Shown: piece by piece, positions 4,991 to 17,896 of the stretch
Numbering within the stretch: position 1 is the stretch's first letter
How the letters are laid out: each line of letters starts with the position of its first letter
DNA from: Candidatus Saccharicenans sp.
GTDB taxonomy: Bacteria > Acidobacteriota > Aminicenantia > Aminicenantales > Saccharicenantaceae
Direction of reading: 5' to 3'
Assembly: GCA_030017715.1 (NCBI GenBank)
Contig: JASEIU010000004.1
Coordinates: 139,456-203,455, forward strand
DNA: 64,000 nt
The notes under the pieces: model-generated
Databases searched by the model: none
What the model saw: the letters and a program-made list of their open reading frames with translations, nothing else
Told to the model about the DNA's origin: nothing
Made by a program: the position numbers and the translations under genes

Positions 4991-7900
4991 GTGATGAAAA
5001 AAGATGATAACACCCCAAAGAGGAAAAAGAGAAAATTTATAAGAACGGCTGTCCGGATCCTGCTCGGACTGGTCTTAATTCTGATTTTTTCCGGTTTGTT
5101 TCTGCAGACTCCCTGGGGCGGGAAACTGGTTCTGAGGAAAGCCGGAAACATTCTGAGAGAGAAGATGGGTCTGAGCCTGCAGGCCGACAGCTTGAAACTG
5201 AATATCTTCAGGCTAAAAGCAGCTCTGTCCGGTCTGAAGATAAGCCCGGCCGGGAAAAGTATACTGCCGGTGGAATTTATCAGCGCCGACCGGATTATTT
5301 TTCAGACCGGCTGGTCAACCATCACCGGCGGCCAGCTCAGAATTAAAGACCTGGAAATAATAAATCCGATTGTCAAATTGAAATCTGGCCAGCCCGGGCC
5401 TGAAGACCGCCAGCCAACCCCGGCCCCTCCGACACCGGAAACCGGAGCGGCTGGCATTTCTTTTCGCATCGATCATTTCCGGCTGGAGCGGGGGGCTTTT
5501 TCCTTTGAAAAACCGGCCACCCCGTTATCCATGAAACTTATCGGTCTGGAGGCCTCAGTCCAATTTGATGAGGACAGCCATTTTCATCTGGCTTCCCTGG
5601 AGGGAAAATCGGGCTCTTTGCTTTTTGGCCGGGGCCAAGCTGAAATCACCGGACTGGAAGTCAAAGCTGCCTTCAACCCGGATACAATCAGGCTGGACAG
5701 AATTTCTCTGGCCGCTGATAATGCCGCCCTCAATATTCATGGAACGGTGGAAAATTATCTTGAAAATCCAGAGCTCAACCTGAAAACCGACGGCCGCCTT
5801 GCCCTGTCGGAACTGGCGGCGATGATATGGCCGGGCCAAAAACTCGGCGGCCAGTTGAGCTGGGAACTTGGCCTGACGGGAACTGCAGCCCGGCCTGAAA
5901 TCACCGGCGGCCTTAAAATTCCCGACCTTGAAATTTATGACCTCAAGCCGGTTGACCTTAGCCTCGATATTTCTCCCTCGAGAGAAGCCGCCCACCTGGT
6001 GAAGGCGGATGTAAGTTATAAGTGGGGGCGGATGCATCTGGCGGGCACCCTGCCGCCCGGACTGAAGGGTAACCTGGAGGCTTCCTTAAGTCTGCAACGG
6101 CTTGACCTCAGGGCGCTTCAGGCGCTTTTGCCCGATTTTCCGGTTGAGCTGGCCTCGGAAATAAGCGGTCGGCTGGAATTTGAAGCCCGGGAGCTATCTG
6201 CCGACGCAATTTCGGGCCTGGCCGAGCTGAAGCTTGAGCCAACCGTTCGGTCCGGGGAGGCGGAGAGCCGACCTGCCGTTCCTGTTTCCGGCGACCTGAG
6301 TCTTTCTTATTCTGACGAAACGCTAAAGGTAAATAAACTCAACCTGGCTCTGCTGAATTCCCGGCTGGAGGTCCGCGGAAAGCTCGAATCGCTGGAAATA
6401 ATATCCGGACAGTTGACCTGGAGATTAGATGACCTGAAAGCTATAATTCAGGCCATAAAATCAAGCGGTCTTCCAAAAATGGCCGTAGGGCTGGAACAGC
6501 AGCTGTCTACCCTGGACGGGCTGAGCGGTTCGGTTCTCCTGGAGGCGCGCTTTTCGGGACAGCTCAACCGGCCGCAATTCAGCCTGGCCCTTGACGGCCA
6601 GAACCTGGGGTACGGCCAGGTTGGCCTGCCGTATCTAGAAATAAAGGCAGACGGGAACCCTGAGAAGATAAATCTCCGTCAGCTTCTCGTCACACTTGAC
6701 CATGGCCGGATAACAGCGGCCGGCGTTTTCCAGGAATTGAAGGCATCTCAAGGGACTGTTTTCAGGCTGGACGGCCGGCTGGATATATCAGACCTTGATT
6801 TATCTCAGTTTTCAGGACTTCTGGCTGAAGAAAACCGGCAGTACTTAAACGGCCTGCTTTCAGGTAAGGTGAACCTGGCCGGAACCACTGCCCGTCCCGG
6901 GGCCGATTTTCAACTGCAGGTCGCCGGGACCGAGGCCGGCACCCTGAAGCTGGAAAGCCTGGAAATTTCGGGAGAGTACAGCCCGGATGAATTGAGTTTC
7001 AATAAAATTGACCTCCGCCTCGGCCAGGAAAGCCAGCTTCAGGGCAGGATAAGTTTCCGGCCGCGATCAGGAGATGTAAGGGTCGAGCTGGAGGGTCGAA
7101 AATTAAAAGCGACTCTGTTTCAGTCGTGGCTGCCGGCACTGACATCGGGATTACTGGACCTGAAGCTCAGCGCCGTCGGACCCTGGAAAAACGCGGTGGC
7201 TGACCTGACAATAACCGGTCAGGGCTTTATGATTGACAGGATCTGGTTTCCGTACTTTGAACTGAAGGCTGACTCAGATGGCCATCTGGCCAGGGCCAGG
7301 CTTAATGTCCCCAGATTTAATCTGAGTCTGGAAACCGGGATGGAATTAAAAGAGCCCCATCTTCTTTCAGGGCTTATTCAGGTCAGGGACCTGCCACTCT
7401 CGGCCCTGGCCGGGTTGCTGCCGGAGGTGGAGGAAACCAGCCCGCTGGTTGCCCTGAGCGCTGTCACCAGGTTTTCATTGCCGCTGAGCAGCCCGGAGAA
7501 GCTGGAGGCCGAGTTTAAGTTCGAGAATTTCGATTTTGCCGGACTGGCTGTGCTGATGCCCTCTCTGGAGAGCCTCAAGCCAGGAGGCCGGGCTGACGGT
7601 CGGCTGGAATTAAAAGGATTTTCATCGGACCTGAAAGGGACGGAACTTGACCTGGAAATTCCTTCCCTTAACCTGCGGCTCGGCGGCAATGAAATCAGGA
7701 ATGAGGGGCCGCTTGCTATCCAGCTGAGGGAAGGAAAACTTCGGGTGGGCAGCTTTATCCTGAACTCCGGCCGGTCAAGATTCAGCCTCGGAGGCGGAGC
7801 CGAATTAAAAGACCCGAAAAATCCTGCCCTGGATTTTACTTTGAAGGGAGACCTGGACCTGTCTGACTTTGGCTCCTGGCTGTCCGGAATGCAGGTCGGA

Positions 7901-10900
7901 GGAAAATTGCAGCTTCAGACTGTGGTCAGGGGCGACCTCGAGGAGCCACTGATTGAAGGCTCAGGGACGATGGAAGAAGTGTTTTTGAGAATGCAGGACC
8001 TGCCCCTTATTCTGAGCAGCGCCAGCGCCAGGTTCAGGGTTGATAATTCACAGCTGGTGCTGGACAGCCTGACCGGGCTGGCCAACTCAGGCAGTTTTTC
8101 CGGCTCCGGCCGGGCTGTATTCGGACAGAATTTCTCGCTGACCTCGGCCAGAATTGATTTCAATCTCCGTGATTTTGATTTCAATTATCCGCCGGGCTTA
8201 AGCAGCCTGTCCGAAGCCAGCCTGGTTCTGAGCAAAGACCGGCGGGGCTGGGCTCTTGCCGGCGACCTTTCCATCCTTAACGCCAGCTACCGACAGGATT
8301 TTTATCCGAGCACTCAGGGCCTGAAGATGGCGTTGAGCAAAGTCTCTCCGGTCGGAACAGAATACCCGGCTTTTCTTTATGACCTACCGCTTGATATCAA
8401 TATCAGGACCATCGAGAACATAATAATCAAAAATAACCTGGCCGACCTGGAACTAAAGGCCAATCTGAACCTCAAGGGGACGATTCCCGCGCCCATTCTT
8501 TCTGGACGGGCTGAAAACGCCTACAGCGGCGAACTGATTATTGGCGAGCGAAAGTATGCCGTGGAGAGGCTCCGGGTGGACTTTCTCGGCCGGGAAAATC
8601 TCGAACCCAACCTGGACATCTTTCTTAAGAGCACGGTCTATGACCTGGAGGAAGAAGTTGAAGTCAGCCTGGTGATGTCGGGAACTCCGTCCGACTTAAA
8701 ATTCTCGCTGACCTCAGTTCCGTCCAGGTCGCAGGAAGACCTGGCCTCGCTTCTCCTGACCGGGAAAAGCCTGCGCCAGGTTCAGGGTTCTGCCCTGAAT
8801 ACCATCAGCGGACAGCTGGTCCAGCATTTTTCCAGCCCCCTGACTTCGCCCGTGACCAGGACCCTGAAAAAATGGCTGAAAGCGGAGGATGTGATCCTGG
8901 AGCCCCTGAATATCGCCACCCTTCAGGACCCCGGGGCCAGACTGACTGTCAGGAAAAGGATGACCAGAGACTTTGCCGTGACTTATTCCATCGACCTGAC
9001 CAACAGCCAGTACCAGACCTGGATTCTCGATTACCGCTTGAAACGGAATTTTTCGACCCGGGCCTTCCGCCGCGACGACGGAGTGGTCGGCTTGAACCTC
9101 AGGCACAGGCTCAATTTTGGACAGACGGCAAAAAGCGGTGGTCAGGCGAAAATCATAACCAAACAGTTGAGCCGGATTGAAATCAGCGGAGAAACTATTT
9201 TCTCCGAAGAACAGCTGACCGGGGTTGTGAAATTGAAGCCGGGGCGCAGGTACCGGACCTCCGCCATCCGGCAGGCCCGGAACCGCCTGGAAGCTTTTTA
9301 CCGGAAACAGGGCTATCTGAATGCCAGGATAGAGGATGAGGTAATCGAACAGGATGAAAACAATCTTGACTTGAAATTTTACATCCAGGCCGGTCAGCCA
9401 GCCGGATTCAAGTTCACTGGAGATAAGCTCCCGGCCAGAGTCAGAAAAAAAGCCATTAATTCCTGGGTCGGACGACTGCCAGAAGAAGCCAACCTTTATC
9501 AGCTGAAAGCTGTTCTGCTCAACGAACTTAACCGGCGGGGTTATTATAAGGCAGAGGTCAACCTGGTCAGAAAGCCCGAAAAAGGTCAAGTCCTGTACGA
9601 AGTTTCAACCAGACTTAACGGCCGCTGGAAGGTCGGAAGTTTCAAGCTGTCCGGGGACCCGGTTTTCAGGGAACCGGTTATCAGAAAAATCGTTTCTGAC
9701 TATTTTGGGGCCAGGGCCAGAGGGCTATGGAACCTGGTCTATGACCGCAAAATAGCCCTGGAGCTTATAGAATACTTTTATCAGGAAAACGGCTACCTCT
9801 CACCGAAAATTGAAGCCCCGGTGATAGAAGAGAATGACCGGAAACGCCTCCTGGACCTGACCTTGAAGATTGAAGCCGGGCCCAGAAGCCAGGTCGATTC
9901 TCTGGAAATAACCGGAAACTCCAGCTTCCAGACGGCCGAGCTGACTCGGATTTTGAACCTTCAGCCCGGCAGCGTTTTTAGCTGGCCGGCACTAAATGAG
10001 GATCGAACCGTTCTTCAGAACCGCTACCGCAGCGCCGGCTATAAGGATGTCAGGGTGGAGATAGAAGCCAGGCCGGCGGGCGAAAAGGCTGATTATGAAG
10101 TTAAAATCAATATAGAGGAAGGGCCTGTTTACACCATTTCCGGCATCGACGTTGAGGGAGCCAGGCGCACCCGGAAATCTTTTGTCCTGAAGGAAAGCGG
10201 CCTCAAGCCGGGCGAGCCGGTTAGCCTGGAAAAGCTGGCCCAGGCCCAGAAAAATCTCTATGATGCCACCAGCTTCCAGGCGGTAAATGTTTCCTCTGAA
10301 GCCGAGAGCAGCCCCGGGCACCAGGAGAAAGTCCGGGTCAGGGTCCTGGAAATGCCCTGGCTAAGCCTGACCTACGGTCTTCAGTATAACACCGATACCA
10401 GATTCGAGGGTTTTACCCAGTTTGATTTTAACAACCTCTTCGGTCGGGGATGGCATAGCTTGCTGTATTTCAGGGCCAACCAGAGACAGCAGGACGCCCG
10501 GGCCTCGCTCAAGATACCTTACCTTTTCGGCCGCAAGCTGGACTCGCTGCTGTCGCTTTTTTATCTGAAGGATATTAGAGACCTTTACATTACCGAGGAA
10601 ATAGGGGCCAGTTTTCAGCAGAAAATCATGATTGTCCGGGGATTTGACCTGAGCTGGGTATACCGTCTGAGCCGGATCCATGATTATGAACAGGAGCCTT
10701 CCTGGCCTTTTCCTTATGATATCAGGGTCACCAGCTCCGAGCTCTCCCTGCTGCTCAGTCGGGACACCCGCGACGACCGATTCGACCCCCGACATGGCAG
10801 CCTGCTGACTGGAAGCTTGAGCTATGCCCCGCGCTATCTCGGCTCCGACCTGAATTATGTCCGTTCTTTTACCCAGTTCACCATGTACAGGTCGGTTCTG

Positions 10901-11326
10901 CCCGGGGTGGTCTGGGCTTCCTGCTATCGGCTGGGGCTGGCCAGCGCTTTCGGGGAAGTCCTGATTCCCGGCAAGCGCTTCTACGCCGGCGGCGGCACCA
11001 GCATCCGCGGTTTCAGACTCGACGCCGTCGGCCCGGTCGATATCTGGACCGGCTTGCCTGAGGGCGGTGAGGCCATGCTGGTCACCAATCAGGAGTTGAG
11101 ATTTCCAATCTATAAAATTTTCAGGGGCGTGATTTTCCTTGACGCCGGCAACGTCTATTCCCGGCTATCTGATTTCAACCCGGGACGCTTGAGGACCGGG
11201 GCCGGGTTCGGCTTGAGGATTGACAGTCCGCTCGGCCTGGTCAGAATCGACTACGGCTTCAATCTCAAGCCGCGCTTGGACGAACCAAAAAGCACTCTTT
11301 TTATCAGTATCGGCCAGGCGTTTTAG
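4991..11326 (+). CDS. giant outer-membrane biogenesis protein: TamB-like (AsmA/DUF490) N-terminal ~1370 aa fused to a POTRA + Omp85 (TamA/BamA-like) C-terminal barrel
   Basis: This is a single 2111-aa ORF. It has an N-terminal signal-anchor helix (ILLGLVLILIFSGLFL). Long beta-rich repeats end in the TamB C-terminal DUF490-type signature (..SGTPSDLKFSLTSVPSRSQEDLASLLLTGKSL.. at about nt 8670-8760). POTRA-like repeats follow (..FYRKQGYLNARIEDEV.., ..YFYQENGYLSPKIE..). The C-terminus carries an Omp85 barrel (RFYAGGGTSIRGF, GVIFLDAGNV, GAGFGLRIDSPLGLVRIDYGFNL) with a terminal aromatic (..SIGQAF). Confidence 0.8.
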   Translation: MMKKDDNTPKRKKRKFIRTAVRILLGLVLILIFSGLFLQTPWGGKLVLRKAGNILREKMGLSLQADSLKLNIFRLKAALSGLKISPAGKSILPVEFISADRIIFQTGWSTITGGQLRIKDLEIINPIVKLKSGQPGPEDRQPTPAPPTPETGAAGISFRIDHFRLERGAFSFEKPATPLSMKLIGLEASVQFDEDSHFHLASLEGKSGSLLFGRGQAEITGLEVKAAFNPDTIRLDRISLAADNAALNIHGTVENYLENPELNLKTDGRLALSELAAMIWPGQKLGGQLSWELGLTGTAARPEITGGLKIPDLEIYDLKPVDLSLDISPSREAAHLVKADVSYKWGRMHLAGTLPPGLKGNLEASLSLQRLDLRALQALLPDFPVELASEISGRLEFEARELSADAISGLAELKLEPTVRSGEAESRPAVPVSGDLSLSYSDETLKVNKLNLALLNSRLEVRGKLESLEIISGQLTWRLDDLKAIIQAIKSSGLPKMAVGLEQQLSTLDGLSGSVLLEARFSGQLNRPQFSLALDGQNLGYGQVGLPYLEIKADGNPEKINLRQLLVTLDHGRITAAGVFQELKASQGTVFRLDGRLDISDLDLSQFSGLLAEENRQYLNGLLSGKVNLAGTTARPGADFQLQVAGTEAGTLKLESLEISGEYSPDELSFNKIDLRLGQESQLQGRISFRPRSGDVRVELEGRKLKATLFQSWLPALTSGLLDLKLSAVGPWKNAVADLTITGQGFMIDRIWFPYFELKADSDGHLARARLNVPRFNLSLETGMELKEPHLLSGLIQVRDLPLSALAGLLPEVEETSPLVALSAVTRFSLPLSSPEKLEAEFKFENFDFAGLAVLMPSLESLKPGGRADGRLELKGFSSDLKGTELDLEIPSLNLRLGGNEIRNEGPLAIQLREGKLRVGSFILNSGRSRFSLGGGAELKDPKNPALDFTLKGDLDLSDFGSWLSGMQVGGKLQLQTVVRGDLEEPLIEGSGTMEEVFLRMQDLPLILSSASARFRVDNSQLVLDSLTGLANSGSFSGSGRAVFGQNFSLTSARIDFNLRDFDFNYPPGLSSLSEASLVLSKDRRGWALAGDLSILNASYRQDFYPSTQGLKMALSKVSPVGTEYPAFLYDLPLDINIRTIENIIIKNNLADLELKANLNLKGTIPAPILSGRAENAYSGELIIGERKYAVERLRVDFLGRENLEPNLDIFLKSTVYDLEEEVEVSLVMSGTPSDLKFSLTSVPSRSQEDLASLLLTGKSLRQVQGSALNTISGQLVQHFSSPLTSPVTRTLKKWLKAEDVILEPLNIATLQDPGARLTVRKRMTRDFAVTYSIDLTNSQYQTWILDYRLKRNFSTRAFRRDDGVVGLNLRHRLNFGQTAKSGGQAKIITKQLSRIEISGETIFSEEQLTGVVKLKPGRRYRTSAIRQARNRLEAFYRKQGYLNARIEDEVIEQDENNLDLKFYIQAGQPAGFKFTGDKLPARVRKKAINSWVGRLPEEANLYQLKAVLLNELNRRGYYKAEVNLVRKPEKGQVLYEVSTRLNGRWKVGSFKLSGDPVFREPVIRKIVSDYFGARARGLWNLVYDRKIALELIEYFYQENGYLSPKIEAPVIEENDRKRLLDLTLKIEAGPRSQVDSLEITGNSSFQTAELTRILNLQPGSVFSWPALNEDRTVLQNRYRSAGYKDVRVEIEARPAGEKADYEVKINIEEGPVYTISGIDVEGARRTRKSFVLKESGLKPGEPVSLEKLAQAQKNLYDATSFQAVNVSSEAESSPGHQEKVRVRVLEMPWLSLTYGLQYNTDTRFEGFTQFDFNNLFGRGWHSLLYFRANQRQQDARASLKIPYLFGRKLDSLLSLFYLKDIRDLYITEEIGASFQQKIMIVRGFDLSWVYRLSRIHDYEQEPSWPFPYDIRVTSSELSLLLSRDTRDDRFDPRHGSLLTGSLSYAPRYLGSDLNYVRSFTQFTMYRSVLPGVVWASCYRLGLASAFGEVLIPGKRFYAGGGTSIRGFRLDAVGPVDIWTGLPEGGEAMLVTNQELRFPIYKIFRGVIFLDAGNVYSRLSDFNPGRLRTGAGFGLRIDSPLGLVRIDYGFNLKPRLDEPKSTLFISIGQAF

Positions 11327-13357: not shown

Positions 13358-14156
13358 GACTGCCGGCCGAGCTGTCAATTATTTCAAATTTCTGGGGACG
13401 GCCGGAGCCAGGTTTGTCATGGCCCGCCAGCTGCGGGCTTCAGGCGGGATTTACCTGGAGTTGCTCGGGCAGAAAATCGCCTTCGACCCGGGACCGGGAG
13501 CGCTGGTCAGGATGACCCACAGCCGCCCGCCGATCGACCCGACCGGTCTTCAGGCCGTCATCCTGAGCCATAGGCATATCGACCATTCCAACGACGTCAA
13601 CATTCTGCTGGATGCCATGACTGCCGGCGGACTGAAAAAGCGGGGCGTACTGATGGCCCCGGAGGAATGTCTGGAAGGGCCCGGGGCTGTCGTTCTGAGA
13701 TACTTAAAGGATTATCTCGAAAGAATAGAAGTCCTGGGGCCGGAAAAAACTTACCGCCTCGGACCGCTTACCCTCAGGACCAGCTGCCGCCATGAACATG
13801 AAGCCGAAACCTACGGCCTGAAGTTCTATCTCCCAGGGCTGGTGCTGGGTTTTATGGTTGATACCAGATACTTCCCCGGATTGCTTCCGAGCTACCGGGA
13901 GGCAGATGTTCTGGTGATGAGCGTCCTGAGGGCCAGGGCAGCCGAGGATGATAATATCAAGCACCTGACAGTAGACGAGGCCACTCAGATCATAAAGGAA
14001 TTAAAACCCCGAAGGGTTTATCTCACCCATTATGGAATGACCATGCTGCAGGCCGACCCCCGGAAGGTGGCCGAGAAAATTACCGCCGAGACCGGGGTGG
14101 AAGTCCTGGCCGCCCATGACGGTCTGACCGTGACTCTGGATGAAAAGCTGTTCTGA
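13263..14156 (+). CDS. MBL-fold metallo-hydrolase
   Basis: The HxHxDH motif is present (ILSHRHIDHSNDVN), with a conserved downstream His/Asp. The true start is uncertain; the ORF's first ATGs overlap the CDF gene, and the first conserved region is ..KFLGTAGARF. Confidence 0.7.
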   Translation: MPAGLKRSWSRNLTGMLPSMWNQKNRTKTKTETAGRAVNYFKFLGTAGARFVMARQLRASGGIYLELLGQKIAFDPGPGALVRMTHSRPPIDPTGLQAVILSHRHIDHSNDVNILLDAMTAGGLKKRGVLMAPEECLEGPGAVVLRYLKDYLERIEVLGPEKTYRLGPLTLRTSCRHEHEAETYGLKFYLPGLVLGFMVDTRYFPGLLPSYREADVLVMSVLRARAAEDDNIKHLTVDEATQIIKELKPRRVYLTHYGMTMLQADPRKVAEKITAETGVEVLAAHDGLTVTLDEKLF

Positions 14157-14225: not shown

Positions 14226-14250
14226 TATTCCTACTAAATTAGTAGGAATA
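14226..14250. promoter_or_regulatory. perfect 25-bp AT-rich palindrome (TATTCCTACTAAATTAGTAGGAATA), candidate operator upstream of the nfu-nifS-iscU operon
   Basis: Read directly from the sequence: 12-bp arms around a central A, 85 nt upstream of the ATG at 14336. It stands out as AT-rich in a GC-rich intergenic region. Confidence 0.45.
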
Positions 14251-14335
14251 ATATTGAAATTGCCGCCGGAAAAGAATAAAATGCCAGTGTGAGCAACTTC
14301 AGGCTTACGAAAGTTATGGTCTCAGGAGTTATTCA

Positions 14336-14554
14336 ATGAAAGAAAAAGTGGAAGAAGTTCTTAACCGCATAAGACCGGCTCTGCAGGCTGACGGCGGAGA
14401 CGTCGAGCTGGTGGACGTGGTCGACGGTGTGGTCTCGGTCAGGTTGAAAGGAGCCTGCGGCGGCTGTCCCATGTCCCAGATGACCCTTAAAATGGGCATC
14501 GAGCGCCTGCTGAAAAAAGAAATACCGGAAATCAAGAGCGTCATTTCGGTCTGA
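14336..14554 (+). CDS. NifU-like (Nfu-type) Fe-S cluster carrier domain protein
   Basis: The motif ..[18 protein letters not shown].. matches the C-terminal NifU domain CxxC motif. The protein is 72 aa. Confidence 0.8.
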
Positions 14555-14586: not shown

Positions 14587-15777
14587 GTGACAGGCTTCTA
14601 TGCCGACAGACAGGCGGCGGCTCCGGTCAGGCCGGAAGTGCTGGAGGCCATGCTGCCCTTTTTCTCGGAAAATTTTGGCAATCCCCAGAGTCTGCATTCA
14701 ACCGGGCAGAAGGCAGCCAAAGCTCTGCAGCAGGCCAGAGAGCAGGTGGCCAGGCTTATCAACTGCCAGCCGGAAGAAATCATCTTCGTTTCCTCCGGGT
14801 CAGAAGCTAACAACCTGGCCTTGAAAGGTCTGGCTCTGGCCAACCAGGCCCGGGGAAAAAAGGTCATTGTTTCCGCCATCGAACATATTTCGGTGTTGAG
14901 AGCGGCTAAATTTTTAGAAAAGCTGGGCTTCAGCACGGTGCAGGTCGCGGTTGACGGCCAGGGACTGGTTGACCCGGCGAAAGTGGCTGAAGCTATCAGC
15001 CCGGACACCGTTCTGGTATCGGTGATGATGGCCAACAACGAAGTGGGCACGATTGAACCGGTGGCTGAAATCGCCAGTCTCTGCCGATCGAAAGGAATCC
15101 TGTTCCACACCGATGCCGTGGCTGCGGCAGGAAATATTCCGGTGGATGTCAGGGCCAGCGGGTTCGATGCTTTGAGCCTGGCCGCCGACCAATTCGGCGG
15201 GCCGAAGGGAGCGGCGGCCCTTTATTTAAGGAAAGGAATAAAGCTGACCCCGCTGATCGACGGCGGAGTTCAGGAAAACAACCGCCGGGCCGGAACCGAA
15301 AACCTACCGGCCATTATCGGCCTGGGCAGGGCAGCCGAGCTGGCCCGGCTGGAGATGGAGGAAAAAGGCCGCCGGCTGACTGCCCTGAGAGACAGGCTTA
15401 TAAACGGAGTACTGAGCAGCCTGGATGAAATCCTCCTGACCGGTCATCCTGTCAGGAGGCTTCCCCATCAGGCCAGCTTCTGTGTCAGGTTCGTTGAGGG
15501 CGAGGCTCTGCTGCTGGGCCTGGACATGAATGGCATTCAGGTGGCCAGCGGTTCAGCCTGCACTTCCAGGTCTCTCCGGACCTCGCATGTTCTCACGGCT
15601 ATGGGACTCGACTCAGCTGTGGCCCAGGGCAGCCTGGTGCTCACCCTGCTGGACGGGACCCGAGAGGAACAGATAGAATATTTTCTGGAAAAATTTCCGC
15701 CGGTGGTCGGACGGCTGCGGGAAATGTCCCCGCTTTACACCAGGTATCTTCAGGAGAAGAAAGATGTACACCGATAA
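14587..15777 (+). CDS. cysteine desulfurase (NifS/IscS family)
   Basis: The active-site loop SGSACTS and the PLP-binding region are present. A GTG start is preceded by gggaaggagg. The 3' end overlaps the iscU-like gene. Confidence 0.9.
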   Translation: MTGFYADRQAAAPVRPEVLEAMLPFFSENFGNPQSLHSTGQKAAKALQQAREQVARLINCQPEEIIFVSSGSEANNLALKGLALANQARGKKVIVSAIEHISVLRAAKFLEKLGFSTVQVAVDGQGLVDPAKVAEAISPDTVLVSVMMANNEVGTIEPVAEIASLCRSKGILFHTDAVAAAGNIPVDVRASGFDALSLAADQFGGPKGAAALYLRKGIKLTPLIDGGVQENNRRAGTENLPAIIGLGRAAELARLEMEEKGRRLTALRDRLINGVLSSLDEILLTGHPVRRLPHQASFCVRFVEGEALLLGLDMNGIQVASGSACTSRSLRTSHVLTAMGLDSAVAQGSLVLTLLDGTREEQIEYFLEKFPPVVGRLREMSPLYTRYLQEKKDVHR

Positions 15778-16336
15778 AGTAATGGAACATTTTCTTCACC
15801 CGCGAAACGTCGGGACCATTGCTGACCCCGACGGCGTTGGGGAAGTGGGCAACCCGGTTTGCGGCGATATGATGACTTTTTACATAAAGGTGAAAGACGG
15901 CCGGCTGGAAGACGTTAAGTTTCAGACTTTCGGCTGCGGCGCGGCCATTGCTGTCAGCAGCCTGGTCAGCGAAATGGCCAGGGGCAGGACGCTGGAAGAG
16001 GCTATGAAGATAACCAATCAGCAGGTGGCCGAGGAACTGGGCGGTCTGCCGCCTCACAAAATGCACTGTTCCAATCTGGGAGCGGATGCCCTGCATAAGG
16101 CGATAGAAAATTATCTCCAGAAGCAGACCGGCCGGCAGGCTGAAGCCAATGAAGGAGGGAAACAGGCTGCCGCCCGGGAAGAACATCTGCACTGTCCGTT
16201 CTGCGACCTGGACCTGCCGGAGAATGTCCAGCTCTGTGCCCGCTGTCAGGTCAAACTGATCAGATGCGAGCATTGCGGCCAGTATAACCGTCAGGACGAA
16301 GACACCTGCCGCCACTGCGGGGCCGGGCTGGTTTGA
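15764..16336 (+). CDS. Fe-S cluster assembly scaffold (IscU/NifU N-terminal domain) with Cys-rich C-terminal extension
   Basis: The N-terminal scaffold motifs are GNPVCGDMM, FQTFGCGAAIA and HCSNLGADAL. The C-terminal extension carries CPFCD..CARCQ..CEHCG..CRHCG. Confidence 0.85.
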   Translation: MYTDKVMEHFLHPRNVGTIADPDGVGEVGNPVCGDMMTFYIKVKDGRLEDVKFQTFGCGAAIAVSSLVSEMARGRTLEEAMKITNQQVAEELGGLPPHKMHCSNLGADALHKAIENYLQKQTGRQAEANEGGKQAAAREEHLHCPFCDLDLPENVQLCARCQVKLIRCEHCGQYNRQDEDTCRHCGAGLV

Positions 16337-16412: not shown

Positions 16413-17321
16413 ATGAAAAAAGAATGGCTGGTAGAAGAAATCGGCAGGCTGAAAAAAGAAAAACGGGCCGTCATTCTGGCTCATAATTATCAACCGGAGG
16501 AAGTCCAGGACCTGGCCGATTTTGTCGGCGATTCTCTGGAACTCAGTCGGAAAGCGGCCGAAGTTGAAGCCGAAATCATAGTTTTCTGCGGGGTTCATTT
16601 TATGGCCGAAACGGCCAAGATTCTGGCCCCGGGCAAAAAAGTCTTGTTGCCCGACCTCCGGGCCCGCTGTCCGATGGCCGACATGGTCAGCGGAGATGAC
16701 CTGCGCTGGATGAAAGAACAGCATCCGGGGAAAAAGGTCGTGGCTTACGTCAACACCACCGCCGAAGTCAAAGCCGAGACCGATGTTTGCTGCACTTCGT
16801 CCAATGCGGTTAAGGTGGTCAGCAGCCTGCCGGAGGCGGAAATAATATTTGTGCCCGACCGCAACCTGGCCGATTATGTCAGCCAGAAGACCGGAAAGAA
16901 ACTTTACATCTGGGATGGTTTTTGTCCGATTCATGAAGACTTCAGGGCCAGGCACATTGAGAAGATGAAAAAGAGTCATCCTGGGGCTGAAGTCTGGGCT
17001 CATCCCGAGTGCCCGGCGGAGGTGCGGCTGCTGGCCGACCGGATTCTGTCCACCGGTCAGATGATCAGGGAAGCTCCAAAATCTGAAGCCAGAGAAATCA
17101 TAGTGGCCACGGAGGTGGGCATTCTGCACCGGTTGAGGAAGGAAAATCCAGGAAAGAAATTTTATCCGGCCAGCGAAAAAGCTGTCTGCCCGAACATGAA
17201 GCGTATAAATCTTAAGAAAATTTATAAAACCCTGCTGCTGGAAAAACCGGAAGTAACAGTCGAGGCTTCCGTCGCCGACCGGGCCAGGGAGGCCATCAAC
17301 CAGATGGTGCGTTTTATTTAA
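16413..17321 (+). CDS. nadA: quinolinate synthase
   Basis: The N-terminus (ILAHNYQ..VQDLADFVGDSLELSRKA) and length are typical of NadA. Confidence 0.9.
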   Translation: MKKEWLVEEIGRLKKEKRAVILAHNYQPEEVQDLADFVGDSLELSRKAAEVEAEIIVFCGVHFMAETAKILAPGKKVLLPDLRARCPMADMVSGDDLRWMKEQHPGKKVVAYVNTTAEVKAETDVCCTSSNAVKVVSSLPEAEIIFVPDRNLADYVSQKTGKKLYIWDGFCPIHEDFRARHIEKMKKSHPGAEVWAHPECPAEVRLLADRILSTGQMIREAPKSEAREIIVATEVGILHRLRKENPGKKFYPASEKAVCPNMKRINLKKIYKTLLLEKPEVTVEASVADRAREAINQMVRFI

Positions 17322-17392: not shown

Positions 17393-17896
17393 ATGAAAAA
17401 AATAACCCAATCCACGGTTAAAGAAGCTCTGGCGGGAGAAAGCCAGGCCCATCTCCGTTACAAGTTCTATGCTCTGAAAGCCAGACAGGAAAACCTGCCG
17501 AATGTTGCCCGGCTTTTCGAGGCCGCTTCTTTTTCGGAACAGATTCATGCCCTGAACCATCTTAACGTTCTGGAAGGTGAGGGCGGAACGGCCGACAATC
17601 TCGGTAAAGCTCACGACGGAGAAAATTTCGAGATAGAGGAAATGTATCCCGCTTATATTGCCGTGGCCAGAGAACAGGGCGAAAAGAGGGCGGCCACCTA
17701 TCACCAGTTTGCCCTGGCGGCCGAAAAAGTCCACGCCGCCCTGTATGCCCGGGCCAAACAGGCGGTCGGCCGGGGTCAGGACCTGGAACTGACGGCTCTG
17801 CACATTTGCTCCGTCTGCGGTTTTACCTTGGAAGGCGAAGCCCCTGACCGCTGCCCGGTGTGCGGCGCCTCCAGCGACCGGTTTGTTAAATTCTAA
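17393..17896 (+). CDS. rubrerythrin
   Basis: Diiron ferritin-like motifs (ESQAHLRYKFYA, EQIHALNHL) are followed by a C-terminal rubredoxin-like CSVCG..CPVCG. A good RBS (aaaggagg) precedes it. Confidence 0.9.
   Translation: MKKITQSTVKEALAGESQAHLRYKFYALKARQENLPNVARLFEAASFSEQIHALNHLNVLEGEGGTADNLGKAHDGENFEIEEMYPAYIAVAREQGEKRAATYHQFALAAEKVHAALYARAKQAVGRGQDLELTALHICSVCGFTLEGEAPDRCPVCGASSDRFVKF

Follow-up and report, generated by a model that had tools for sequence, protein, structure and literature searches.

A perfect 25-bp palindrome upstream of the nfu-nifS-iscU operon in Candidatus Saccharicenans: a predicted operator for an Rrf2-family, IscR-like regulator

Known operators of Fe-S cluster biogenesis genes include those of IscR and related regulators of the Rrf2 family. 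In E. coli, type-1 IscR sites have the consensus ATASYYGACTRWWWYAGTCRRSTAT; in P. aeruginosa the AT-rich 3-bp ends of type-1 sites are highly conserved, and a type-1 site that lies upstream of the -35 element (site A) contributes only a little to repression (PMC6599224). RisR, an Rrf2 regulator of Myxococcus xanthus, represses both isc and suf, and its footprinted operator is an imperfect palindrome, T(t/g)GAC-N7-GTCC(t/a), with AT-rich flanks (PMC9973013). In Rickettsia and Pelagibacter, a 19-bp palindromic IscR box has been predicted before iscR-suf (Rodionov et al. 2006, PMC1698941).

In this paper we compare these systems with a 25-bp palindrome found before an nfu-nifS-iscU operon in an uncultured Aminicenantes bacterium, Candidatus Saccharicenans. 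The window, that is, the whole stretch of DNA that was analysed, is 64,000 nucleotides long, and positions are those of the window unless a locus is named. The palindrome is probably the operator of an Rrf2-family, IscR-like transcription factor that senses Fe-S clusters. This would be a well-known kind of switch, here with a regulator gene that lies elsewhere in the genome. The features of the region are as follows.

14226..14250, no strand: predicted Rrf2/IscR-type operator, 25-bp perfect palindrome (repeat search, orthologue conservation, flank analysis)
14229..14247, no strand: 19-bp core TCCTACTAAATTAGTAGGA, CCTAC-N7-GTAGG (alignment of orthologues, genome-collection scan)
14254..14259, + strand: predicted -35 hexamer TTGAAA, 3 nt after the palindrome (promoter scan; same hexamer and offset in orthologues)
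14277..14282, + strand: predicted -10 hexamer TAAAAT after a 17-nt spacer (promoter scan; unchanged in alignment)
14324..14328, + strand: Shine-Dalgarno sequence AGGAG of nfu (sequence read; unchanged in alignment)
14336..14554, + strand: nfu, NifU C-terminal-domain protein, 72 aa, first gene of the operon (Pfam PF01106)
14587..15777, + strand: nifS-type class-V cysteine desulfurase, 396 aa (Pfam PF00266; homologues named cysteine desulfurase, Ca. Saccharicenans)
15764..16336, + strand: iscU/NifU-N scaffold with C-terminal double zinc ribbon, 190 aa (Pfam PF01592, PF12773)
16413..17321, + strand: nadA, quinolinate synthase, a 4Fe-4S enzyme (Pfam PF02445; synteny kept across the clade)
17393..17896, + strand: rubrerythrin (Pfam PF02915, PF21349; synteny)

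The palindrome, TATTCCTACTAAATTAGTAGGAATA at 14226-14250, is an inverted repeat without a mismatch, its two 12-nt arms flanking a single central base (12-1-12). It begins 70 nt after the stop codon of an upstream MBL-fold hydrolase gene (which ends at 14156) and its end is separated from the ATG of nfu (14336) by 85 nt, so that a reading of the sequence bears out what the preliminary description of this DNA had said of its length, its arms and its distance from the first gene. A search of the 64-kb window for perfect inverted repeats whose arms measure 12 nt or more, with spacers of 0-3 nt, gave no other, and by our own estimate (4 spacers x 64,000 / 4^12) about 0.015 would be expected per window by chance; the description was likewise right that a palindrome of this length is rare. 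When up to three mismatches were allowed, the 19-nt core had no second match in the window and none in 100 shuffles. The preliminary description had also proposed a search with the half-site for further members of a regulon; in the window the 12-nt half-site (up to two mismatches) was found four times against 2.7 expected, which is no enrichment and therefore points to no further regulon members there. The palindrome has a GC content of 22%, against 55-65% in the spacer upstream of it; the spacer had been called GC-rich, which is correct upstream of the palindrome and incorrect downstream, where an AT-rich promoter follows. Its stem contains three G-C pairs, and no T-run follows it in the window.

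The promoter scanner called TTGAAA-17-TAAAAT at 10/12 matches, and the same pair was called in two orthologues. From the positions of the hexamers, transcription would start near 14289, and since the palindrome ends 3 nt before the -35 hexamer it would then span about -63 to -39. Pfam matches confirmed the Fe-S genes named earlier and the rubrerythrin gene near them. The nadA gene is co-directional and syntenic with nfu-nifS-iscU and probably belongs to the same transcription unit, and the rubrerythrin gene, which shares both properties, possibly does. The annotation of the window thus gains a predicted IscR-type operator and promoter for the sole Fe-S assembly operon seen in it; we know of no cultured members of the Aminicenantes and of no studied regulators in this phylum. 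The IscU-type scaffold (15764-16336) carries an extra double zinc ribbon that is conserved across the clade and is 190 aa long, compared with about 125-140.

The NifS protein of the window is 100% identical to a protein from a Candidatus Saccharicenans MAG, and its best matches all come from that clade. We aligned the window with seven syntenic loci (eight in total), in which Nfu is identical to the protein of the window and NifS is 84-99% identical. In this alignment TCCTACTA.A.T.GTAGGA is invariant, and about 65 nt upstream of it are largely unalignable. Directly behind the site, TTGAAAT and TAAAAT are likewise unchanged, with a 17-nt spacer before the second. The core is constant in about 20 orthologous promoters despite the divergence of the DNA upstream, its distance to the -35 hexamer varies by no more than 1 nt in all nfu copies, and relatives whose NifS is 67-72% identical have TCCTACTAAAATGATAGGA at the same place. 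As far as sequence comparison goes, this shows that purifying selection maintains the nfu-promoter site and that its distance from the conserved promoter is fixed. Before the nfu-nifS-iscU genes of remoter Aminicenantes, whose NifS is 61-65% identical, no copy was found when up to four mismatches were allowed. Judged from these alignments, the site is conserved over a family-level clade and replaced at greater distance. In several of the distant Aminicenantes (L131-L135, L008), nfu-nifS-iscU(-tusA-nadA-rubrerythrin) lies about 40 nt behind genes for 2-oxoacid:ferredoxin oxidoreductase and the palindrome is absent. One of these loci, L134, has a sigma-54-type -24/-12 element, TGGCAT-N5-TTGCT, with a gene for a GAF/sigma-54 activator upstream, an arrangement which suggests that the regulator has been replaced there.

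The preliminary description had found the palindrome unlike a canonical IscR type-1 box or a Fur box, and hence possibly the site of a different regulator. This impression is understandable, because the match to the degenerate E. coli type-1 consensus is 15/25, which about 0.9% of all 25-mers of the window equal or exceed and which alone proves nothing. It is not supported, however, in view of the central 17 bp, of which 15 match, of the type-1/RisR architecture, and of the occurrence of the same 19-mer before Rrf2/IscR-like genes and nifS-iscU. The proposal in the same description that the palindrome is the operator of a dimeric regulator which controls Fe-S biogenesis is supported. The consensus of the clade, AATTCCTACTAAAATAGTAGGAATT, matches the E. 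coli consensus at 17/25, the score of P. aeruginosa site A. In the flanks of the Aminicenantes copies (about 51% GC), half-site position -3 is A in 95%, position -2 is A in 87% and position -1 is A or T, and the bases beyond are near random, which makes this a 25-bp motif with AT-rich 3-bp ends. Intragenic matches in other phyla, which are likely due to chance, lack the AT-rich flanks.

With CCTAC-N7-GTAGG, AAW/WTT ends and a length of 25 bp, the site has the xAC-N7-GTx core and AT-rich ends by which type-1 dyads are recognised (PMC6599224, PMC9973013). It shares with the type-1 sites of E. coli and P. aeruginosa the 25-bp dyad, this core, a YY/RR shoulder (here CC...GG), a W-rich centre, AT-rich 3-bp ends and a location in promoters of Fe-S biogenesis genes (isc, nfuA and erpA in those species), and site A of P. 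aeruginosa, at -43 to -67, occupies a similar position (PMC6599224). It differs from them in the half-site, which is SYYGACT in type-1 sites and TCCTACT here (T for G and, symmetrically, A for C), and in the outer triplets, which are ATA/TAT there and AAW/WTT in Saccharicenans. Moreover, Saccharicenans has a single site upstream of -35, without a second one over the -35/-10 spacer, and the regulator gene does not head the operon. The RisR operator has the same spacing and flank architecture, but its core is GAC/GTC instead of TAC/GTA and its sites overlap the -10 or the -35/-10 elements (PMC9973013). The IscR-alpha-I box of the alpha-proteobacteria is likewise a 19-bp palindrome, and the exact 19-mer is present in the same lineages (L064, L065), from which loci we take it to be identical to the published logo; that box precedes the gene of its own regulator (autoregulated iscR-suf), whereas the Saccharicenans box precedes nfu-nifS-iscU with no regulator gene nearby (PMC1698941). 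In Gram-positive iscR-nifS-iscU operons, with IscR of the Thermincola potens type, the 19-mer stands before Rrf2-nifS-iscU (L018, L068), and it stands before nifS-iscU in Thermovenabulum and other Firmicutes; there the site is 8-63 nt from the start codon of the regulator, over or after the promoter, whereas in Saccharicenans it is upstream of -35.

The occurrence of the motif outside the clade was determined by scanning one genome for each of 185,579 species with TCCTACTAWAWTWGTAGGA. At least 117 loci were found, and chance matches for the whole collection are estimated by us at about 35. Among the 117 matches listed, 43 are labelled Aminicenantes, Saccharicenans or 'Acidobacteria UBA10528', and four more, with the same synteny, are from two MAGs with other labels. 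These two, CAZDZU01 ('uncultured Eubacteriales bacterium'; L055, L071) and CALEUG01 ('uncultured bacterium'; L062, L128), have the Aminicenantes-type synteny of a SelB-wing/697-aa gene pair and a DUF438 gene, both described below, and are probably mislabelled or unclassified Aminicenantes.

The remaining 70 listed loci were examined by tblastn. The motif lies 8-72 bp upstream of an Rrf2-family gene in at least ten lineages (L018, L030, L032, L042, L053, L057, L064, L065, L068 and L123) and 36-85 bp upstream of nifS-iscU in at least four more, namely Thermovenabulum, two other Firmicutes and a Coriobacteriales genome (L017, L035, L077, L088); the 19-mer is therefore linked to Rrf2/IscR-like genes or nifS-iscU in at least 14 unrelated lineages. 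In a Peptococcaceae genome (L018), a Lachnospiraceae genome (L068) and a contig labelled Corallococcus (L123) the motif heads Rrf2-nifS-iscU, and in Rickettsia typhi (L064) and a Pelagibacteraceae genome (L065) it stands 27-37 bp ahead of genes for IscR proteins that share 46% identity with the IscR of E. coli. The other Rrf2-linked lineages are Rhodothermaceae, Hanamia, Nanopelagicaceae, a Beckwithbacteria genome and an unclassified bacterium. At most IscR-linked loci outside the clade the box is 8-37 nt from the start codon, which is clearly the geometry of a repressor. On the contig labelled Corallococcus sp. (JAMPHX010000010.1) the operon looks AT-rich, and the exact palindrome stands 8 nt ahead of the regulator gene. 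This agrees poorly with a high-GC myxobacterium, the studied relative of which has a RisR box of the form GAC-N7-GTC, and the contig may therefore have entered the bin as a contaminant.

The regulators linked to the motif pass the Rrf2 superfamily cutoff, and their best specific models are IscR or CymR, at scores below the equivalog cutoffs. All but one have three Cys in the cluster-binding segment, and the closest solved structures are IscR/CymR-group proteins; for the Peptococcaceae regulator the closest is PDB 4cic (E = 1.6e-58), which is a regulator of the BadM/Rrf2 family, and structures of CymR and IscR come next. Further genes behind the motif outside Aminicenantes encode an ErpA/IscA-type carrier (Vogesella), a SufC-like ATPase, CysD, a CysE-like acetyltransferase adjoining iscR, 1-Cys peroxiredoxins, 2Fe-2S ferredoxins (weak Pfam match) and a siroheme-synthase/TauE protein. 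By their predicted functions, this is the target gene set expected for regulators of the IscR/CymR type. The identical 19-mer before IscR-like genes and nifS-iscU, together with the type-1/RisR geometry, thus marks the Saccharicenans palindrome as most probably an IscR-type box. The half-site variant TCCTACT is shared almost unchanged by Rickettsia, Firmicutes, candidate-phyla-radiation bacteria (CPR) and Aminicenantes, and could for this reason be used to annotate Fe-S regulons in metagenome-assembled genomes.

In the proposed mechanism an IscR-like dimer would bind the palindrome with one winged helix-turn-helix on each half-site (AAW-TCCTACTA / TAGTAGGA-WTT). If the footprint measures 25-30 bp, like those of IscR and RisR, it would extend to the first base of the -35 hexamer and cover the position of an UP element. 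When the supply of Fe-S clusters is adequate, the cluster-loaded regulator would occupy the site and lower transcription; when clusters are scarce or oxidised, it would leave and the operon would be induced, as in canonical negative feedback. We infer which protein regulates the operon in Saccharicenans, that it represses and does not activate, and the form in which it binds. Searches by tblastn with three probes and by an HMM built from 15 sequences detected no Rrf2 gene, either in the window or in 563 kb of DNA from Aminicenantes. Judged from the 64-kb window, the regulator gene is therefore unlinked to the operon, which the preliminary description had thought possible. Nor was an Rrf2 gene found beside the operon in four distant NifS orthologues (P0063, P0085, P0092, P0080); in these the palindrome is missing and the operon is fused on behind POR genes. 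Around the 47 Aminicenantes copies of the motif, no regulator gene turned up repeatedly; a ParB-like gene is 2.6 kb from one copy and a YebC gene is next to another.

The Saccharicenans clade differs from other taxa in the number of copies that a genome contains. Exact copies number at least six in Ca. S. subterraneus BY38 (L027, L037, L060, L078, L091, L097) and at least three or four in several other genomes of the clade, and other taxa have one each among the matches listed, in which 37 other Aminicenantes loci fall among L014-L130. The copies occupy orthologously conserved places, one of which is the nfu promoter. A second, which follows closely on a conserved TTGTGG-17-TATCAT and therefore lies over the transcription start, is 24-62 nt ahead of a DUF1858-DUF438-hemerythrin-PAS gene; a third stands just before OsmC, after a TATAAT. 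At other places it follows a stop codon: 4-6 nt past the end of the gene before GH127 (L025, L027, L063, L090, L119, L127) comes the palindrome, then a separate GC-rich hairpin with a T-run and then the GH127 ribosome-binding site (e.g. L027 7290-7375, - strand), an arrangement that could be an intra-operon control point. Copies are also found inside the signal-peptide coding sequence of three unrelated families, in the frame IPTI(L/I)VG(F/I) before the lipobox or cleavage site: a GH3 lipoprotein (L037 6791, L095 5673, L108 3461), a SIS-domain protein (L052 7346, L070 4019, L097 2492) and a DUF1302-like outer-membrane protein (L109 873). The nucleotides of these copies are kept exactly, and the cores of signal peptides normally drift.

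Another conserved copy lies in a 63-nt gap between two convergent genes (L082 6331-6349; also L014, L055, L091, L111, L113, L118, L128, L136-L145, L149 and L150). One gene encodes a protein of 697 aa with an acidic/lysine-rich tail and no Pfam match, and the other a protein of 364 aa that consists only of SelB-type winged-helix domains. Among the matches listed, the context in Aminicenantes is convergent in eight cases (plus four homologous cases at contig edges) and divergent in three, and elsewhere it is convergent in five and divergent in 15. A scan of metagenomes with the SelB-wing protein gave 15 orthologous loci, in seven of which the palindrome is exact (66-100% protein identity) and in one of which, L137 (75%), it has one mismatch. 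The copy is kept to about 60% protein identity and is gone at 53-55%; it decays one half-site at a time (L142/143, L149) or to CTAC-N7-GTA (L144/145), and the variation includes no compensatory change. This lack of compensation, together with the fixed arms at non-orthologous copies, argues for a sequence-specific DNA-binding protein and against an RNA hairpin, a terminator or a mobile repeat.

The preliminary description had held that an operator should recur in the orthologous promoters of relatives and should be absent from many unrelated intergenic and coding sites. The motif is indeed present in the orthologous promoters of close relatives; it is also present at several unrelated intergenic and coding places in the Saccharicenans clade, though these copies are few and orthologously conserved, and their decay resembles that of protein-binding sites and not of a mobile repeat. 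Because some copies occupy places that cannot hold a promoter, the palindrome may do more than control promoters, and our guess for the non-promoter copies is that the bound protein acts as a roadblock to transcription. We put forward tentatively, and with considerable doubt, that an IscR-type box was recruited in this clade beyond Fe-S promoters, with perfect 25-bp copies under selection between convergent genes, directly behind stop codons and, with the reading IPTILVGF, within the hydrophobic signal-peptide cores of an outer-membrane protein and of glycoside hydrolases that are secreted. If a single Fe-S- or redox-sensing Rrf2 protein did bind all the copies, it would be a global regulator of the roadblock type that couples Fe-S/oxygen status to polysaccharide degradation, and its operators would in part be written in coding sequence, an unusual arrangement. 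The Aminicenantes are an obligately fermentative candidate phylum. The lineage-specific spread to non-promoter and coding positions is the sole aspect of the system that could yield something new. A scan of 18 loci found no Rfam family of RNA genes beside the copies. In one Aminicenantes MAG a CRISPR array (Rfam CRISPR-DR7; L111 7726-7980) lies 6.7 kb from the copy and is unrelated to the palindrome.

Other readings of the site must be weighed against repression by an IscR-like protein, and the nearest keeps the regulator and reverses its effect: the same Rrf2/IscR-like protein, bound upstream of -35, would recruit RNA polymerase. E. coli IscR is known to activate in this way at the suf promoter. 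The position of the palindrome, upstream of -35 and not over the core promoter, counts against repression, and activation would also agree with a site that adjoins -35 and leaves the -10 and start free, with a spacing to -35 that is held within 1 nt across species, as would suit a contact between protein and polymerase, and with promoter hexamers that are good and not perfect. The centre of the site, however, would fall near -51, away from both standard activator positions, class I and class II, that are known from CRP-type activation; the short distance to the start codon at most IscR-linked loci elsewhere is that of a repressor, and in E. coli and P. aeruginosa, perfect dyads of the type-1 kind serve as sites of repression (PMC6599224). 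We regard activation as unlikely, and within the IscR-type reading repression is clearly favoured over it.

The multiple copies in the clade could instead reflect a lineage-specific factor other than IscR, such as a nucleoid-type or roadblock protein or the SelB-wing winged-helix protein itself, for which the nfu site would be one target of several. The six or more exact copies in a clade genome against one in other taxa (among the matches listed), their positions between convergent genes, after stop codons and in signal-peptide coding sequence, the lack of an Rrf2 gene near any of the 47 copies and, in many genomes, a SelB-wing gene ending 31-50 nt from a conserved copy would all fit such a factor. 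It is nevertheless quite improbable, since in sequence and 25-bp extent the motif is identical to the Rrf2-linked box of at least ten other lineages and the nfu, DUF438-hemerythrin and OsmC copies have the geometry of ordinary operators; as for the SelB-wing protein, its gene persists where the adjacent palindrome has been lost (L146-L148). Still less probable, and in our view very much so, is a role as RNA in place of a DNA operator: the hairpin would stabilise the mRNA of the MBL-fold gene or end its transcription, and would serve other 3' ends in the same way. As RNA the palindrome does fold (-12.4 kcal/mol, z = -5.8), it lies 70 nt behind the stop codon of that gene, TTTTTC follows it in several orthologues, and many other copies come just after stop codons or between convergent genes. 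The terminator scan, however, did not call a terminator at the palindrome, either in the window or at two orthologous loci, and no T-run comes after it here; at all non-orthologous copies it is the sequence of the arms, and not merely their pairing, that is fixed; divergent copies lose pairs on one side only, without compensation; the palindrome of L027 has a separate GC-rich hairpin and T-run behind it; and the linkage to Rrf2 genes would be left unexplained. An intrinsic terminator, with a GC-rich stem and a T-run, was rejected on the terminator scans and the analysis of variation. REP-like palindromes and intrinsic terminators resemble the element in that several copies occur per genome of the clade, often just after stop codons or between convergent genes, but differ in that the copies here are few (at least six exact, not hundreds), with an AT-rich stem and no consistent T-run, and stand at orthologously fixed positions with a fixed arm sequence and no compensatory changes. 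A structure-selected hairpin or REP-like repeat was likewise rejected, as the compensatory changes, the high copy number and the variable positions by which it is recognised were not found. A palindrome of no function could arise in AT-rich spacers, which can hold inverted repeats, but the expected number of such repeats per window is far below one, the palindrome is unique in the window, and it is conserved in about 20 orthologous promoters and recurs beside Fe-S genes across phyla; chance is refuted by this conservation and has a negligible probability.

Upstream in the same window (4991-11326), a 2111-aa ORF joins DUF748/TamB and POTRA/Omp85 domains, as identified by Pfam in its orthologues, and would be a fusion of both parts of a translocation-and-assembly module.
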